From Isurus oxyrinchus (taxonomy: Eukaryota), in NCBI GenBank assembly GCA_026770705.1, contig JANJGN010000301.1, positions 372,001 to 436,000 on the forward strand: a stretch of 64,000 bases of DNA. Direction: 5' to 3'. The first letter of the stretch is position 1, and each line of letters begins with the position of its first letter. Below are positions 16,108 to 55,860 of this stretch, piece by piece. The notes under the pieces were generated by a model. It saw nothing but the letters and a program-made list of their open reading frames with translations. It searched no databases and was not told the origin of the DNA. The translations under genes and the position numbers were made by a program.

Positions 16108-16379
16108 TATTTGACCAGATCAAATGCTGGTAGAAAGAATTCCTCACAAAAGCCGGGCTAGAACCACGACAGGGGTATTAGATTTAAGAGGATTAACAAC
16201 AGCCAAACAGCCACTTCAGGTCCAACTCAGAGGTATTTTCGAGTAGAAAAACCAAAGAACCTGTTCTCAGAGTGTACCTGTTCCTGGCCACTATCCTGCC
16301 ACAACCTCTCCCTCCCTCCCACTCGGTGCTTCTCATTAACGGCAGTTTATACTGCGTCTGAGCTCACACGCGGTACTCC

Positions 16380-16890
16380 ACTCTCAGTCTTTCTGCAGGA
16401 CACCAGCTCACAATCTCCGACCTCACACCGGGCCGCCCACAATCAGTATTTCTCACTGAGACCAGCTCACACTCTCTGAGATCACACTGGGCCGACCACA
16501 CTCAGTGTTTCTCACTGAGGCCAATTCACACTCTCTGAGCTCACACCGGGCAGCCCACACTCAGCGTTTCTCACTGAGACCAGCTCACAATCTCTGACCT
16601 CACACTGGGCCGCCCACACTCAGTATACCTCACTGAGACCAATTCACACTGTCTGAGCTCACACCAGGCCAACCACACTCAGCGTTTCTTACTGAGGCCA
16701 ATTCACACTCTCTGAGCTCCCATCGGGCTGCCCACACTCAATGTTTCTCACTGAGGCTAATTCACACTCTCTGAGCTCATACCGGGCCGCCCACACTCAA
16801 TCTTTCTCACTGAGGCCAATTCACACTCTCCGAGCTCACACCGGGCCTCCCACACTCAGTGTTTGTCAGTGAGATCAGCTCACACTGAGC
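16380..16890. repeat. 59-bp minisatellite, about 9 copies, upstream of a family A V
   Basis: Unit cacactcagtgtttctcactgaggccaattcacactctctgagctcacaccgggccgcc. The register shifts 1 bp per 60-bp line. Confidence 0.92.
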
Positions 16891-18704: not shown

Positions 18705-19030
18705 CTCGAGGTTTCACACTGACATCGGCTCACCCTGTCACTGAGTGCAGGCTTGACCGCCCACATTAAATATTTCATAGTGGCACCGGCTCAATCTGTC
18801 TCTGAGCTCAGACTGGACTGCCCACTGTCAATATTTCACACAGACACCGGCTCAGCCTGTCTCTGAACTCACACCAGTCCGCCCACGTTGACTATTTCTC
18901 ATTGACACCGGCTCAACCTGTCTCTGAGCTCACACCGGTCCACCCACATTCAATATTTCTCACTGACACCAGTTCACCTTGTCTCTGACCTCACACGCGG
19001 TCGTTCACATTCAATATTTCTCACTGACAC
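18705..19030. repeat. About 60-bp minisatellite, 5-6 copies, related to 16380-16890
   Basis: Unit aatatttctcactgacaccggctcaacctgtctctgagctcacaccggtccgcccacattc. Confidence 0.85.
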
Positions 19031-23514: not shown

Positions 23515-23943
23515 ATGTGTTGTTTTGCACAGTTAAAGCTATTTTCCGTCATTCTGGCAATTCGAACAGGTAGGTACAGGACAAATACCCAGAGTAAGTT
23601 GTTCATTATTAATCTCGTTTATCCAGTGTTTCATACCCTAAATACGTTTCCAGGTCGATGTCTCTCGGACCGTGTGCTTCAATCTCCCGCATCGAAAACA
23701 GTCCAGAGCGGGGATTCGGTGCAGATGGACTGCAGCTATGAGGTGTCCAGCTTTTACACGATGCATTGGTACAGGCAGAAACCCGGTCAGGGACTGGAGT
23801 GGATTATAAGGCAAATATCGACTGGCAAAGAGAGAAGCGGGCGATTTGAACTGAATCTTTCCGAGTCGGAGAAACGCGGCCAACTGCTCATTGAAGGCAC
23901 TGAGGGCGCTGATGCCGCTGTTTATTACTGTGCTGCTGAGTCC
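23515..23943 (+). CDS. TCR alpha/delta V segment (family C), apparently functional; leader 23515-23569, V exon 23654-23943
   Basis: MCCFAQLKLFSVILAIRT|GRCLSDRVLQSPASKTVQSGDSVQMDCSYEVSSFYTMHWYRQKPGQGLEWI...DAAVYYCAAES. Canonical GT-AG, both Cys and Trp present, no stops. Confidence 0.93.
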
Positions 23944-43782: not shown

Positions 43783-45484
43783 GTTTCATTACAGATACAG
43801 ATGGCCACAGCAGGGAGTGTCGGACTGAGGGGGCAGTTAGTCAGTGCGGTCTTTGCAATGTGCGGAGCTTCATTTCCTGATTGTTTCCCAGGGAACCAAA
43901 AGAGACCCTGAGTGCTTATTTTATGCTGTTGTGGGATGATTCTTGAAGAACATTAATATAATTATACAGTAAAGTCCAGTGCTTAAACTGGTTTCCACAA
44001 TGTCGGCATGTATACTCTTGTCCCAAATTATGACCAGTTATCTGAAAGAATGCAACTGCGGGTGAGATTTCCCCCTCCTCTCTTGTGTCTCGCATCAAAA
44101 TATTAACCAAGTTCGAAACACAAACAGAAAGTGCTCGAAATACAACAAGAAACAGAGCGAAAACTCCAGCCTGTGACCTTTCACCAGAAACCAGCAACTC
44201 CTCAAACTGAACTCAAGTGAAATGTCGTAGACATGAATCCTTACTTCTGATTCGCTGTGCACCGATGTTCCCCGATTTGCCGAGTGTGGCCATGATCTTC
44301 TGTCATTATACCGCAAAGAAATTTGGATGGGAGCAGAAAAGCTGATAATTAGACTCGCTTCTGATGATAGAGCCCAGCCAAGTGAAAGTCAGCAGCCATT
44401 CTTATTTCTAACGAGCTGTGGGTCGAGAGTTCATTGTATGTCAAGACAATTTTGAGCCAGATGGGTTTTCAAGAGTAAATTTCATGTTTCCTGTCCATTA
44501 ACCCTGTTAAAAACATTCCTTCAATTCTTCCATTTTCTCACTTGCTTTCTGTGTAGGGACACTTTTCTCAAGTAGAAATTATATCGTGCTATAAAATCAT
44601 TGAATCGTCCAGTGATTATATCGCAGATGGAGACCGTTCGGCCCGTGCTGACTCACTTCAAGTGCAATTTACCTGGTCCCGGTCTTTTCTCTCTAGCTAT
44701 GCATTTTTTTTGTTTGCTTTTCTGATTATTCATTAATTCCCTATTGAAATGAACGATTGGATCTGCTGCCACCACGTACTCAGACTGTATATTCCAGATT
44801 TGGATTACTCAGTCTATGGAAAAAGGTTTTCATCATGTCGCCGTTCGCTCTTTTGCCAATCTCTTTATATCAGTATCCTCTGGTGCTCAATCCATCCTTA
44901 GCTACACTGCCTATTTCCTGAATTTTTATAATCTCCATAGCTTGCCTAACCCATCCACGTAACTGAAAGTTATTTAAATGGTCCATTCCCATGAGTCTAT
45001 TTGGCACCCTCTTTCATGCCTCTACATCCCTCCGAAACTGCGATGACCAGAACAGAGCACAATACTCCAGTTGAGGCCGAGTGTTTTGCACAGTTTGATA
45101 AAAATCCCCTTGTTTTTATCCTCTATGTCCTACTTATAAAGCCCTGCACGCCGTATACTTTTGTAATTGATTTGTCAATCTGCTCTATTCGATAAACTCA
45201 CACTTGGGTGATTATGAATCGGCCAAATACGCATTTTTCCTGGGAAATAAAGGACGTGAGAACGTGAAATACTTTCACGAATTATATTTACTGGAACATT
45301 GGACGGAGAGGAAAATTGAAGGGTGGGAGGAGCGAGAAGGAAATGCAGAGCTCATCAGTTTAATCACTTTATCCTATGCGGTAAAATGCTAACAACCTTT
45401 GAGAAAATATTCTTGAATAATATTTGTATTCCCAACATCTCTGCACTCTGTTGCCATTGTCTGACTCTAATCCCACCATGTTCA

Positions 45485-45895
45485 GGGTTTTGGACAGCTC
45501 TGTCCCTGCGCTGTATCACTGTGTGTCTGTAATCCTAGTAAGTTCAGGTTTTTGTACAGGTCTGTCCCTGCGCTGCATCACTGTATGTCTGTATCCCCAC
45601 CATGTTCAGGTTTTTGTACAGATCTCTCCGTGTTCTGTATTACTGTGTGTCTGCAATTCCACCATGTTCAGGTTTTCGTACTGCTCTCTCCGTGCTATGT
45701 ATCACTGTGTGTCTGTAATCCCACCATGTTCAGGTTTTTGTACAGATCTCTCCGTGTTCTGTATTACTGTGTGTCTGCAATCCCACCATGTTCAGGTTTT
45801 CGTACTGCTCTCTCCGTGCTATGTATCACTGTGTGTCTGTAATCCCACCATGTGCAGGTTTTTGTACGGCTCTCTCCCTCCTCTGTATCACTGCG
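45485..45895 (-). repeat. Tandem array of seven 23-RSSs (62-bp period)
   Basis: Nonamer (reverse complement) starts at 45485, 45547, 45609, 45671, 45733, 45795 and 45857. Each is followed by exactly 23 bp and a heptamer (rc: cactgtg, cactgta, tactgtg, cactgtg, tactgtg, cactgtg, cactgcg). Confidence 0.95.
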
Positions 45896-45900
45896 CTGTG

Positions 45901-46193
45901 CGGCCACTCAATGCACAGTAATACACAGCAGAGTCGCTTAGCTGTAGTTTGGAGATATTTAACCGGTTGATTTTCTAGGCATAATCGATAGAAGCAGAAA
46001 TTGTCAGCATTTTCTTTATTCTCCTCTCCTGAAATGTGTTTCTGAAGAGGATATTCCTGAGCGTGTCCTGGGGAATGACGGTACCAGAGAACTGTGTAAT
46101 GACAGAATCCTGAATATTCATAGCTTAAAGTATGGGTTTCACCAACAGCAGAGGTTTTTAGAGGCGGATCCTGGGATATCATTGAACGATAAT
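45901..46193 (-). pseudogene. NAR-TCR supporting V-delta (leaderless, CDR1 Cys), pseudogene
   Basis: Acceptor ctgcag|46193. DYRSMISQDPPLKTSAVGETHTLSYEYSGFCHYTVLWYRHSPG...(frameshift) ISASIDYA*KINRLNISKLQLSDSAVYYCALSG. First Cys changed to Tyr. No leader seen; in phase with the J at 48882. Confidence 0.85.
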
Positions 46194-48881
46194 CTGCAGG
46201 AGAAAAATTGGATATTATTCTTTTTAGCTACTGTTTATTCGAGGAAACTTGTTTATCACAGTAGGTGTTCTGGCTTTGGATGAAGTTTGTTTAATTTGTA
46301 ACTTCCTCTAACTTCATTCACCGTTACTGAAATATGAACCAGTGAAAGGATGAGGTTTTTTTTGTGTTTCACTGCGAGTTCTTACTATTTGGCATGCATT
46401 GCCTGAAAGGATAGTGAGCTCGGTTAAGGGTATTCTCCAAACGTGTAATGGACAAGTGTTTGTTGGAACACGAATAAACGCAGGACCACGGGGAGAAAGA
46501 GTGATGGGTTAATTGGGTTGCATTTTTAGAGAGGCAGCACTGACACGATGGACCGCATTTCAAACTGCCGTGCTGAATTTAATGGGCATTACATTTCTGT
46601 TTCTATTTTTCCAGAGGACACATTTTATTATCAGTGGGACAATCAATTCCCAAAAATTATTGTCCAAGACTAACCGAACTGTGTAGCATCAGTGAGCACA
46701 GCAAGATCCAAAATAACCTCATGAGATTCATCAGCACCGTTTGGGCCAAACCGATAGTGAACATCGGTGGACAAAAGTGCTGAAGTTTAATAAATTCGGG
46801 AGTTTCTGAGCTTTTTGATCTACTGCTCTATATTCAACTAACAATAGGGCCCAATTTTCTCCGTCTCCTTTTAATTTGAAATATTTACAGTTAGTTTCAT
46901 TTTATTTTACATTACCTTTGTGCTGTTTGTGCTTTTTGCAATCATGGGAACTTGTCCCAAAGTCTCTCGGTTGTCGGTTGGGTTCAGTCTGTTCAGTTTC
47001 CGCAGTGGTTTTACTGTTACTCACTGGGAACCGCCTCTTCCGGCTCCCTGACAACTTCAATTCTTTCCGCCCAATGACTGATTCTGAGCGCGTTCTCTGG
47101 GCGGAGTTTTCTAGAATTTTGCATTATACACAATCTGCAGAAGAGAAATAGGCCATTCGGCCTAACTGATTGATGCCTATGTTTAAACTCCAGACCAGCC
47201 TGCCCTGCCCGAAATGTAAATGACCATTTCGATCCACGTCCTTCTGCCTGTCTATTCCGCTCTCCCTCTTGTATTTTCAAGTCTTCTCATAAATCCATCA
47301 ATGCTCCCTGCTCCAGCCAGTCCATGTGACCTCCAGTTCCGCATTCTGATACGTGTTGATGCAAATGTTTTCTTCTTAGTGTCTTTATGTTTTCAGTTAG
47401 TGGCCAGTTTATAATAATCTCCTATTGCTCTGGACTCGGCCACAAATTAACCGTTGCTCCACTTCCACCCGAATGAACCCTTCATAATAAAAAGGTTTCG
47501 TTGATTTCTCCTCGTGATTTCCTCTTTTACAGAGAACAATGACCCAGCTTGTTCAATCTTTCCAGAGAGACGTGGATTGTTGCTGATTTCATTTCTCAGG
47601 AATGTAAGAAATCAAAGCAGAGAACGTAACAAAGAGAAGGAGGAGGTGCCACAGCTCCTCCATTCAATAACATCGTGGCTGATCTCCGTCTTAAACATCA
47701 CATTACAGCAATGTCCAAACAACCCTATATTCTATCGAATAACGCTTTAAATAGAGTCAGCACTGAGTATCCAAAGCTCTCTCAGGAACAAACTCACAAC
47801 AATGGTTTGACTTCTCCTCTTCTCAGTTCTAATGGCCGAATCTTTCTTCTGAAACTTTGACCCATAGTTATAGACTTCCCAGCCTTGGGAAAAATCCACC
47901 GGGAATCTGCCCTGCCCTCCATTTTGCATGTTTTTGAATGAGATTACCTCTCAATTCCTCGAAACTCAGGGGAACATTGGCCCAGCCTATTCAATCTCTT
48001 CTCATAAGACAATCCCTTGACCTCAGGAATCACTCTGATGAACCTTTGTTGCATTCGCTCCAAAGGAATTAGATCTTTTCCTAACGGTGAGGTCAAGGCT
48101 TTACCTAGCATTCCAGGCTGGAGCCCGTTGCGGCCATCCCCTCCATAAACCTCACCCCCAACCCTCACGCCGGAAAGCATTTTGAACGGCCCCCTGAGAT
48201 CATCCAACCCTTCTCTTCATTTCGATTATTATTGTTCCCTTATGTTCTTGTTCTTCTTTATCACTTTAGTGCATCATCCTCACTCTCTCTCCGCTCAGGC
48301 TTGTTTTAATTCACAGAAACCGGAGATACAGATAAATCAAAGCAATCCGATCTCTGAAACATCTGCACTTAAAATAATAAAAGTCAGCGGTTCCAACCTT
48401 AAAAACGATTAGGATTGTGAGTCCGAGGCATTGATGGTTCCTGATGTGTCAACGAAACCAATAATGATCCATGTGCAACGAACCCCTATGCCCCACCCAA
48501 CCCTTCCTTCCCTCGCCCACCGCCCTACACCAAGACCTCCACCCACCCTGACCACGCTGAACGCCTAGTCCGTCAGGTCTCACACATAGTTTCGCCCAGA
48601 CATCTGACCTGACTCCCTAATCCGATTCTGATCCCAAATCGAAAAAGGCAATGGAGAGGCTTCCTTAGAAAACCCGTCAGTTTTCGTTTTATTGGGACTA
48701 GACTGATAATGATCACAATAATAACTAATAAGCAGACGGTGAACATTACCCTGGACAGGCTGTAACGCGACGGGTGGGAGTCGGGGGCAGGGGGATAAGT
48801 GGTAAGGCGGCGGTTGGGGGGTGGGGGGGTGGCGGGGAGAGGGCGGGGTGCGGTAGGGCGGCTGCGGTTGGATTCACTTAC

Positions 48882-48973
48882 CGGCTGTGACAGTCACCAC
48901 CGTCCCGGATCCAGCCGCATAATCAGTAACCCACCACAGTGACACCGCTCACAATCTCCCCGGTACAACAACC
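48882..48973 (-). other. NAR-TCR J segment with 5' 23-RSS
   Basis: Coding 48934-48882 WVTDYAAGSGTVVTVTA followed by G|GTAAGT donor. RSS heptamer 48935-48941 (CACAGTG on +), 23 bp, nonamer ACAACAACC 48965-48973. Confidence 0.88.
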
Positions 48974-49287
48974 ACCGACACCTCAACCTGCCGGCAAATC
49001 ATCATCAGGCAGTAGAAACTGCCCAAATATGCAGCGCATTTAAATAAACAACGTTATTCAATGTTTCAAAGTCTCTGTCGCTTCAAGCTGTTCTTTGTGA
49101 GGCCCTGAGGCCTGAGCAAATGGTGCCGGGAACGAGATGTTCGCTTCATGTAAACCGAGAGAAATATCAAAGAAAGATAACTGAATGGTGGAAATTACAA
49201 TGAAATGTAACCAGATTCCAGCGATAATAACATCGACCCGACAATTCACCATTTGGGCCATGATAATTTATGTTTTAATTGTACAGA

Positions 49288-49783
49288 GTTATTTGTTCAG
49301 GCCTTTTCCACTGTGCTTTACCAATGTTGTGCCACTACTGACGTTTACAGTAATAGGTGGCCGTGTCTTCAATTCTTACATCCCGAATTTCCAGCAAAAA
49401 TGTCTTTCTTGTTTTGTTCACCGACACAACAAATCTTCCGCCGTCGAGGATCCTCTCCCGCTCTGTCCCAGTCTCGATGTTTTTGAAGAAATGTCCCGCT
49501 TGCAACTAATGCCGCTAATAGAAAACACAAGCGGTGGTAAGAGACTGACACTCCTTCCTGGTCACCGCTGCCGGGATCTGTGACACTGACTGACTGAAAG
49601 ATCCTGGAAATTAAACAAAGAGAGTTCAATAGACCATCGAAGTCGAACCAGAGAACGATGTCAAAACCCCAGACAGTGTCTGTAATGGGGATGGACTCGG
49701 GCAGCTTTATATTGAATCCACACAATGTCGGTTTGTTTGATCGGTACTCACGGGGTAAACAGACACACAAGGAGGATTCCCAT
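49288..49783 (-). pseudogene. NAR-TCR V (IgNAR-like V), apparently V-D germline-joined, with 12-RSS; pseudogene
   Basis: Leader MGILLVCLFT 49783-49752 (gtgagt donor, phase shifted). Exon 49603-49316 reads GSFSQSVSQIPAAVTRKECQSLTTACVFY*RH*LQAGHFFKNIETGTERERILDGGRFVVSVNKTRKTFLLEIRDVRIEDTATYYCKRQ*WHNIGK. RSS CACAGTG (49315-49309) + 12 bp + ACAAATAAC (49296-49288). Confidence 0.87.
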
Positions 49784-49806
49784 CGCTCCGCTGCCTGGAG
49801 CTGAGG

Positions 49807-49909
49807 GTTTATATGACGGGGAGCAGGAGACTGCAGCCCTGGACTGCACTGGGAGATCGGACCTCAGAGCTGGACTGAAACATTTTAGGGGGATCGAGTT
49901 GATTTGCAC
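49807..49909 (-). promoter_or_regulatory. Ig-style promoter of the NAR V: TATA-like box and octamer-like motif
   Basis: CATATAAA about 25-30 bp upstream of the ATG; GTGCAAAT (one mismatch to octamer ATGCAAAT) at 49909-49902. Confidence 0.5.
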
Positions 49910-50189
49910 GGAGCAATGTCGCTGCGTTTTGTTGATGGGCCGCACGGATCCCGGGTCGTTGGCTAAGTGTGGTGTGAATAAGAGACAGGTTTATAAAAGG
50001 AGGCTGCAATTTTCTGACTCTATATTTGGATTGTGATCCAGATGTAAAAGCCCCTCTCACAATACTCTGGTGTACAGGGGTGGGAGAGGGGAGATTTTCT
50101 TTCTGCCAGTTGTGCGGCCGCCTTCATTTCCCCGCAGTAATGAACTGGGAGGTTGGTGCATGTGATTGTATTGGGCGGTGTTTGTTAGA

Positions 50190-55572: not shown

Positions 55573-55614
55573 TGTCGCTGTCCACCCTGTAAAAGGGCAG
55601 TCGGATATTTGAAA

Positions 55615-55860
55615 CGTCCATTCTAAACCCCGCCCTCAATAATATGATGCCGTGCCTCAGGTGGAAACATCCATTCTAATTCCCGCTCTTAATAATCTGA
55701 TGACGTGTCTCAGATGGGAACACCTATTATAAACCCCGCCCTCAATAATCTCATGACGTGTCTCAGGTGAAGACACCTATTCTAAAGCCCACGTTGCAGC
55801 TATCCGTCCTGCAAAATTTGAGGGCACCGGTTCTGAAGCCCATTCTCAATAATCTACTAT
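55615..55860. repeat. About 53-bp tandem repeat of the family B promoter module (3-4 copies)
   Basis: Unit cattctaaaccccgccctcaataatctgatgacgtgtctcaggtggaaac contains a GC box and a CRE half-site. Confidence 0.8.

Follow-up and report, generated by a model that had tools for sequence, protein, structure and literature searches.

What kind of receptor gene occupies the minus strand between 45896 and 49909 of a 64,000-nt stretch of the Isurus oxyrinchus genome (GenBank assembly GCA_026770705.1, contig JANJGN010000301.1, positions 372,001 to 436,000 of the forward strand; hereafter the window, its contig being C301), and how did the V segment of this gene come to be fused to D? The original prediction, made from sequence alone, was a complete but inactivated cassette of NAR-TCR, the doubly rearranging T-cell receptor (TCR) delta chain described for cartilaginous fish (PMC12227049, PMC5931798, PMC3457774). 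We consider it highly probable that this is a dead NAR-TCR cassette with its V fused to D in the germline, the likely agent being RAG acting in ancestral germ cells. On its own the cassette is a pseudogene of a known receptor; its NAR V belongs to a locus-wide pattern of germline joins that includes stacked, fully joined exons.

The predicted order of leader, IgNAR-like V, J with a GT donor, intron and leaderless V is present at the sequence level, all on the minus strand unless stated otherwise. The NAR-V promoter comprises a TATAAA box (49808–49813), kept in leader-bearing paralogs, and, upstream of it, the motif GTGCAAAT (49902–49909), which is octamer-like. The leader exon (49752–49783, ATG at 49783) is followed by the NAR-TCR V exon (49325–49603, or 49316–49603 with its joint), the framework region 1 (FR1) of which reads TRKECQSL and contains the claimed extra Cys (KEC). 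Next come a germline V–D coding joint (49316–49324), delimited by split-paralog alignment and junction parsing, where roughly 9 nt stem from the 3′ end of D and from base addition; a 12-spacer recombination signal sequence (RSS), formerly the D 3′ RSS (49288–49315); and a D–J spacer (48974–49287) that aligns collinearly with the spacer of split paralogs (best identity 88%). The J, WVTDYAAGSGTVVTVTA (48882–48934), is flanked by its 23-spacer RSS (48935–48973, plus strand). Its GT donor is in phase 1, as is the acceptor of the supporting V, and across the 2688-nt intron (46194–48881) J splices in frame to the supporting V, just as had been proposed. The leaderless supporting V-delta (45896–46193, YRSMISQ...SGFCHY) starts at the predicted position and carries the predicted Cys in its complementarity-determining region 1 (CDR1), but its end lies at 45896 rather than 45901. 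The pair of extra Cys residues, in the NAR FR1 and in CDR1 of the supporting V, is a feature of NAR-TCR, and the CDR1 Cys is present in 55 of 55 intact supporting Vs of this genome. A 62-bp tandem array with about seven 23-RSSs, the first with the heptamer CGCAGTG, follows at 45468–45895; 23-RSSs, one to eight each, also stand behind 91 of 93 paralogous supporting Vs.

The cassette is inactivated at four independent points. The leader exon measures 32 nt and ends in phase 2, as compared to 43 nt and phase 1 in paralogs, and thus has an 11-nt deletion that puts it out of phase, as had been noted. The NAR V exon contains three TAG stops (codons 29, 32 and 89). In the supporting V the first canonical Cys is lost (Cys23Tyr, TGT>TAT), and an 8-nt deletion at 46009–46005 shortens the exon to 298 nt from 306 nt. 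Inactivation as such was therefore predicted correctly, although the expectation of stops in both Vs holds in full for the NAR V only: the TAG of the supporting V (45975–45977) is read only in the 3′ frame that follows the 8-nt shift. The window copy, with its stops and frameshifts, was not found joined to D, J and C delta and expressed.

Are the two V domains indeed those of NAR-TCR? A tblastn-type search of the genome returned the window itself with an E-value of 5.5e-57 and paralogs of the same layout at 1e-39, which argues that the layout is not due to chance, and the best single-domain PDB matches are VNARs. We built a quick maximum-likelihood tree of 103 rows and 88 columns from 74 NAR-TCR-type Vs, seven IgNAR Vs, 14 sampled supporting Vs plus that of the window, and seven conventional Vs from the window; it was restricted to contigs C26, C242 and C301 and to frames that are open or have no more than two stops. 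In this tree, which has few columns and long branches, the V at 49.3–49.6 kb falls among the 74 NAR-TCR-type Vs, sister to the seven same-genome IgNAR Vs; the NAR-type Vs separate from supporting and conventional Vs (SH-aLRT 99), and the V at 46 kb groups with supporting Vs (SH-aLRT 95), so both predicted identities stood. The leaderless state of the latter also held: a scan of the 2.69-kb intron revealed no leader candidate, a weak test, as the control recovered only 3 of 13 conventional V positions; among paralogous supporting Vs a candidate was found for 2 of 94. One paralog is 85–94% identical to white shark models, and the white shark models labelled NARTCR in Table S1 of PMC12227049 are 73–85% identical to a paralog; for the comparison with nurse shark NAR-TCR, a protein database search returned no named record. 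An IgNAR cluster was considered and rejected, as the IgNAR Vs found in this genome are followed by three D-type RSS sets and make up a clade of their own, whereas neither three D segments nor IgNAR C exons after J are found here and J leads to a V-delta. TCR mu was rejected too, since it requires a VH-type V, its own C mu and a mammal, and here the V is NAR-type and the animal a shark. The window V is thus supported as an IgNAR-related V of a NAR-TCR cassette rather than a conventional TCR V.

What is not ordinary about this cassette is its joint. The claim that the cassette is complete was right for its layout but not for a separate D, since V is already joined to D in the germline. The NAR V runs 31 nt beyond its Cys into a 12-spacer RSS, with the 23-RSS of J opposite and no D between, whereas the order in split paralogs is V-22RSS, 12-D-12, 23-J; this order, seen in 79 paralogs, rules out a light-chain-like V12/J23 design. 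Separate V, D and J for somatic rearrangement are absent from the window copy and present in 79 of 141 paralogs. As judged by alignment with split paralogs, a block of about 390 nt (V RSS, V–D spacer and D 5′ 12-RSS) is excised exactly in the window and the sequence resumes at the D 3′ end, the exact V, added-base and D borders of the joint being uncertain by a few nt. The same joint defines a family of 12 paralogs, the YRYNIG family, many of which have intact leader, V, J and supporting V, and to which the window copy is about 85% identical. Window and family have in common AACATTGGT, the D 3′ spacer and the 500 nt before the supporting V, the last with an identity of 0.86 as compared to at most 0.72 for other classes. 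YRYNIG VD-joined copies such as L153 have an in-frame TAA just before the 12-RSS, so that only D–J joins that trim it would be productive.

The window joint is one of many. We searched the 4.98-Gb genome and scored 150 of 500 candidates, which makes all counts lower bounds; of 143 NAR-type matches in the stretches analysed two were partial pieces and were dropped. Among the at least 141 NAR-type Vs examined, 79 are split (20 of them without a recognised J), 37 are VD-joined (three manually moved from the class ‘other’) and 25 are VDJ-joined; contig C26 alone holds 64, with 34 split, 16 VD-joined and 14 VDJ-joined. At least seven junction types can be told apart among the VD joints (26, 28, two of 31, 33, 41 and 43 nt). 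In the 109 copies for which a D 3′ RSS was found, the distance separating it from the V Cys is bimodal, below 50 nt in 37 and 400–550 nt in 72, with none between. The 16 distinct VD junction sequences are all free of heptamer remnants; joints of 41 and 43 nt retain the whole D with 2 and 7 added bases, respectively. Signal joints are fixed as well: ACACTGTG abuts CACAGTG at C26:29964421 (L161), and ACATTGTG abuts CACAGTG at C242:380637 (L071). In both, the D 5′ 12-RSS stands precisely head-to-head with a supporting-V 23-RSS, and D, J and supporting V are gone; the two probably derive from one ancestral event.

The RSS-precise breakpoints, the added bases and the two 12/23 signal joints point to RAG as the maker of the joints, and their anatomy, taken together with PMC2193156, suggests that RAG was active in germ cells; in that paper the same criteria served to assign joined shark immunoglobulin genes to germ-cell RAG. 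Could the V–D block instead have been lost by ordinary deletion, or by slippage at microhomology between heptamers of the same orientation? The family does include ordinary deletions that took both D and J (seven copies of one class lack them), and the window’s own joint is old and hard to parse. Set against this are the lack of intermediate deletion sizes, the retained D sequence and added bases and the precision of the signal joints; the joints with full-length D already largely refute deletion, which we regard as very improbable. Even less credible is that the joints are somatic rearrangements from lymphocyte DNA in the assembly: the same joint recurs at 13 sites among flanks that have diverged and lesions typical of pseudogenes, and the same junction peptides appear in RefSeq models of white shark and basking shark (P0004, P0005, P0007, P0008, P0010 and P0018), the white shark model P0010 matching the window-type joint. 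The joints are therefore inherited and predate the splits of these species. Joined-looking CDR3s in catshark, zebra shark and whale shark models contain read-through into the J RSS (SLC, PLC) and were not counted.

Several points count against a germline-fused NAR-TCR cassette or against our numbers: the protein tree places the window V apart from the YRYNIG family, little is left of its D and that little is mutated, no C-delta lies on C301 (matches are at C26:29.90 Mb and C242:617 kb only), and several contigs may be alternative haplotypes that swell the counts. The two C-delta-like exons (L199 and L200, on C242 and C26) are diverged, and may represent haplotypes or a second delta locus. In the mechanism that we propose, RAG would have joined V to D in the germ cells of an ancestor, giving an inherited VD exon. 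A live cassette of the window’s design would then need one VD-to-J join and one join of the supporting V to D/J delta, and would yield leader–NAR V–V delta–C delta with a predicted disulfide between the FR1 and CDR1 Cys residues.

What, then, has become of the 25 fully joined copies? All have an 85- or 88-nt joint, likely one ancestral joint plus a 3-nt indel, together with an AG acceptor, a GT donor and the FR1 Cys. All 25 are in frame at the joint, and all 25 have a Cys in CDR3, eight residues past the second canonical Cys, as compared to 2 of 79 split V ends. A usable leader is found in 3 of the 25 vs 92 of 116 other copies, the 22 dead leaders displaying at least five lesions (a stop, ATG>AAG, ATG>ATA, GT>CT and a deletion), and the octamer-like motif in 1 of 25 vs 46 of 59 split copies; the V frame is open in 19 of 25 vs 84 of 116. 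All but one of these exons (24/25) follow a NAR V(D)-J that has a leader, and no supporting V intervenes. There are 16 such stacked cassettes, 12 with one inner exon and four with three. Eleven are intact throughout (seven on C26), with all 19 inner exons open, while the six broken exons belong to cassettes in which the outer V is frameshifted or the supporting V is itself broken. On paper the outer J joins the inner V in frame (VTVTA-G-SFSQ), and the 11 intact cassettes are predicted to encode chains with three or five V domains. The white shark gene LOC121270138 spans 8833 nt (PMC12227049, Table S1), which matches the 8812 nt from outer leader to supporting V here, and so fits a two-storey layout, but does not match the 3534 nt from the inner leader.

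The FR1 Cys aligns with the Gly of the VNAR motif ‘KETGES’, a position at the base of the immunoglobulin domain, whereas CDR3 is at its tip. The CDR3 Cys of an inner domain could thus take the place of the supporting V’s CDR1 Cys. The fully joined copies have lost promoter and leader, have kept acceptor, frame, donor, FR1 Cys and CDR3 Cys, and stand, one or three deep, between a rearranging NAR V and the supporting V; we predict a disulfide from the CDR3 Cys of each fixed domain to the FR1 Cys of its upper neighbour. A single-sequence AlphaFold2 model of white shark P0004 was unusable (mean predicted local distance difference test score 38). In a Heterodontus francisci model, P0006, NAR-type domains that share one CDR3 sequence and have a Cys in CDR1 stand in tandem before a supporting V; this may be either an independent horn shark stack or a modelling artefact.

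Are these exons spliced in? The contigs examined are RNA by computational guess, and no run recorded as RNA contains a fixed exon. In a contig of run X3 the fixed J is cut exactly at its donor and joined to 30 nt from the start of a supporting V; supporting Vs matching it occur only behind fixed exons or their type. The contig X2, which matches C140:196294 without a mismatch, reads into the fixed exon from the acceptor onwards, so that the acceptor is live, the transcript itself being probably sterile. The ratio of non-synonymous to synonymous change (dN/dS) is 0.44 in the 85-nt class (11 exons), 0.91 in the 88-nt class (six exons), 0.80 in split copies and 0.64 in the dead VD43 copies, for pairs that are not independent and for open frames only; the selection signal on the stacked exons is mixed.

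We lean towards the fixed exons being spliced in as fixed spacer domains, and are similarly inclined to the wider proposal that lamniform sharks express multi-storey NAR-TCR delta chains, in which a rearranging NAR V rides on one or three invariant domains, stiffened by a ladder of disulfides between FR1 and CDR3 Cys residues, on a supporting V-delta, and germ-cell RAG products are recycled as stalk-extending exons. A fair part of the data pulls the other way: three 88-nt exons retain ATG and GT; C26:30036006 has a stacked-type outer V and a supporting V with no inner exon; X2 reaches the fixed exon from a zinc-finger-like, non-coding exon that has its own GT donor and eight degenerate copies in the locus (L191–L198); X2 and X3 have depths of 2.5 and 2 and come from one sample; among the guessed-RNA contigs none has outer J spliced to inner V, and a comparison of four sets of such contigs with a 10-kb stacked cassette gave no exon–exon joint among the matches listed, which repeats dominated; and dN/dS is 0.91 in the 88-nt class, with dead VD43 copies still at 0.64. 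The missing outer-J-to-inner-V contig and the ratio of 0.91 would suit an unlikely alternative, namely that the stacked exons are leftover duplicates skipped in splicing and that an ordinary two-V NAR-TCR remains. Skipping would preserve the frame, as all exons are in phase 1, and slow shark evolution, as put forward in PMC5931798, would let open frames persist. It sits poorly with leaders decayed in at least five ways next to an acceptor, donor, frame and both extra Cys residues that persisted, with a fixed J seen spliced to a supporting V, and with stacked exons open in white and basking shark models.

Somewhat less likely again is that the outer leader splices directly onto the fixed exon, giving an invariant two-V NAR-TCR with no NAR rearrangement, comparable to IgM1gj in pups. 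RefSeq models P0005, P0007 and P0008 are built in just this way, and PMC2193156 and PMC4279169 describe germline-joined shark immunoglobulin genes as expressed early in life. The conserved CDR3 Cys would, however, sit unpaired at the tip, wherever the inner exons are intact the outer V, D, J and RSSs over them are intact too, and the RefSeq models, being automatic, would in any case leave out a V that is not rearranged. If instead the stacked exons are spliced in as spacers, the outcome would be a TCR chain of variable height with up to five V domains, and a direct case of a rejoined V gene taking a new structural job, a role proposed in PMC2193156 and said there to lack an example. These findings give defined PCR and long-read targets.

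Elsewhere in the window, the region from 14.5 to 64 kb contains at least 12 conventional TCR alpha/delta Vs, on both strands and with 22/23-RSSs, most of them broken; those at 23911, 43532 and 52124 appear open. Minisatellites lie near V genes, with units of 59 bp (16357–16886), 61 bp (18712–19030) and 53 bp (55611–55790). At C242:400–550 kb (L073–L088), between intact cassettes, NAR Vs of the split and the 43-nt VD-joined kind form a repeated array with dead J donors (CTAAG) and often dead leaders, which may be a decayed stack or duplication debris.

How much of this is already known? Tandem joined NAR domains have been noticed: Table S1 of PMC12227049 labels white shark LOC121270133, which by its NCBI description would be our P0004, as ‘NARTCR V(gj)V(gi)V’, a label given without discussion, and the gene resembles our stacks in that a supporting V carries two joined NAR domains in tandem. 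The portion of the PMC12227049 text covered here says nothing of a rearranging outer V, of the loss of leaders, or of VD and signal joints, and the main texts searched (including PMC3457774, PMC5931798, PMC6795676, PMC3964593, PMC7615758, PMC4279169 and PMC13433984) describe no VD-joined or stacked NAR-TCR; joined NAR-TCR segments may already be described in Criscitiello 2006 and 2010, Deiss 2019, Ott 2021 or their supplements.

The locus is like NAR-TCR in its FR1 and CDR1 Cys residues and in its order, an IgNAR-like V-(D)-J before a supporting V-delta that lacks a leader and has a 23-RSS of its own, yet the window copy is VD-joined in the germline and dead, and its paralogs add one or three joined exons for a predicted three or five V domains as compared to two. 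The VD-J and VDJ germline-joined clusters of shark immunoglobulin genes, as presented in PMC2193156 and PMC4279169, likewise mix RSS-precise joints that are fixed in the population, VD joins included, with split genes, and are attributed to germ-cell RAG; here, however, the locus is a TCR locus, the joined exons are internal leaderless domains, and signal joints are fixed too. Marsupial TCR mu, on the account of PMC7615758, also sets a diverse outer V on an invariant pre-joined V exon, V-mu-j. The likeness is one of analogy only: V-mu-j replaces the supporting V and is thought to have been retroposed, whereas the fixed exons of the shark, which are of NAR type, still show intron and leader remnants and come on top of a supporting V that continues to rearrange.

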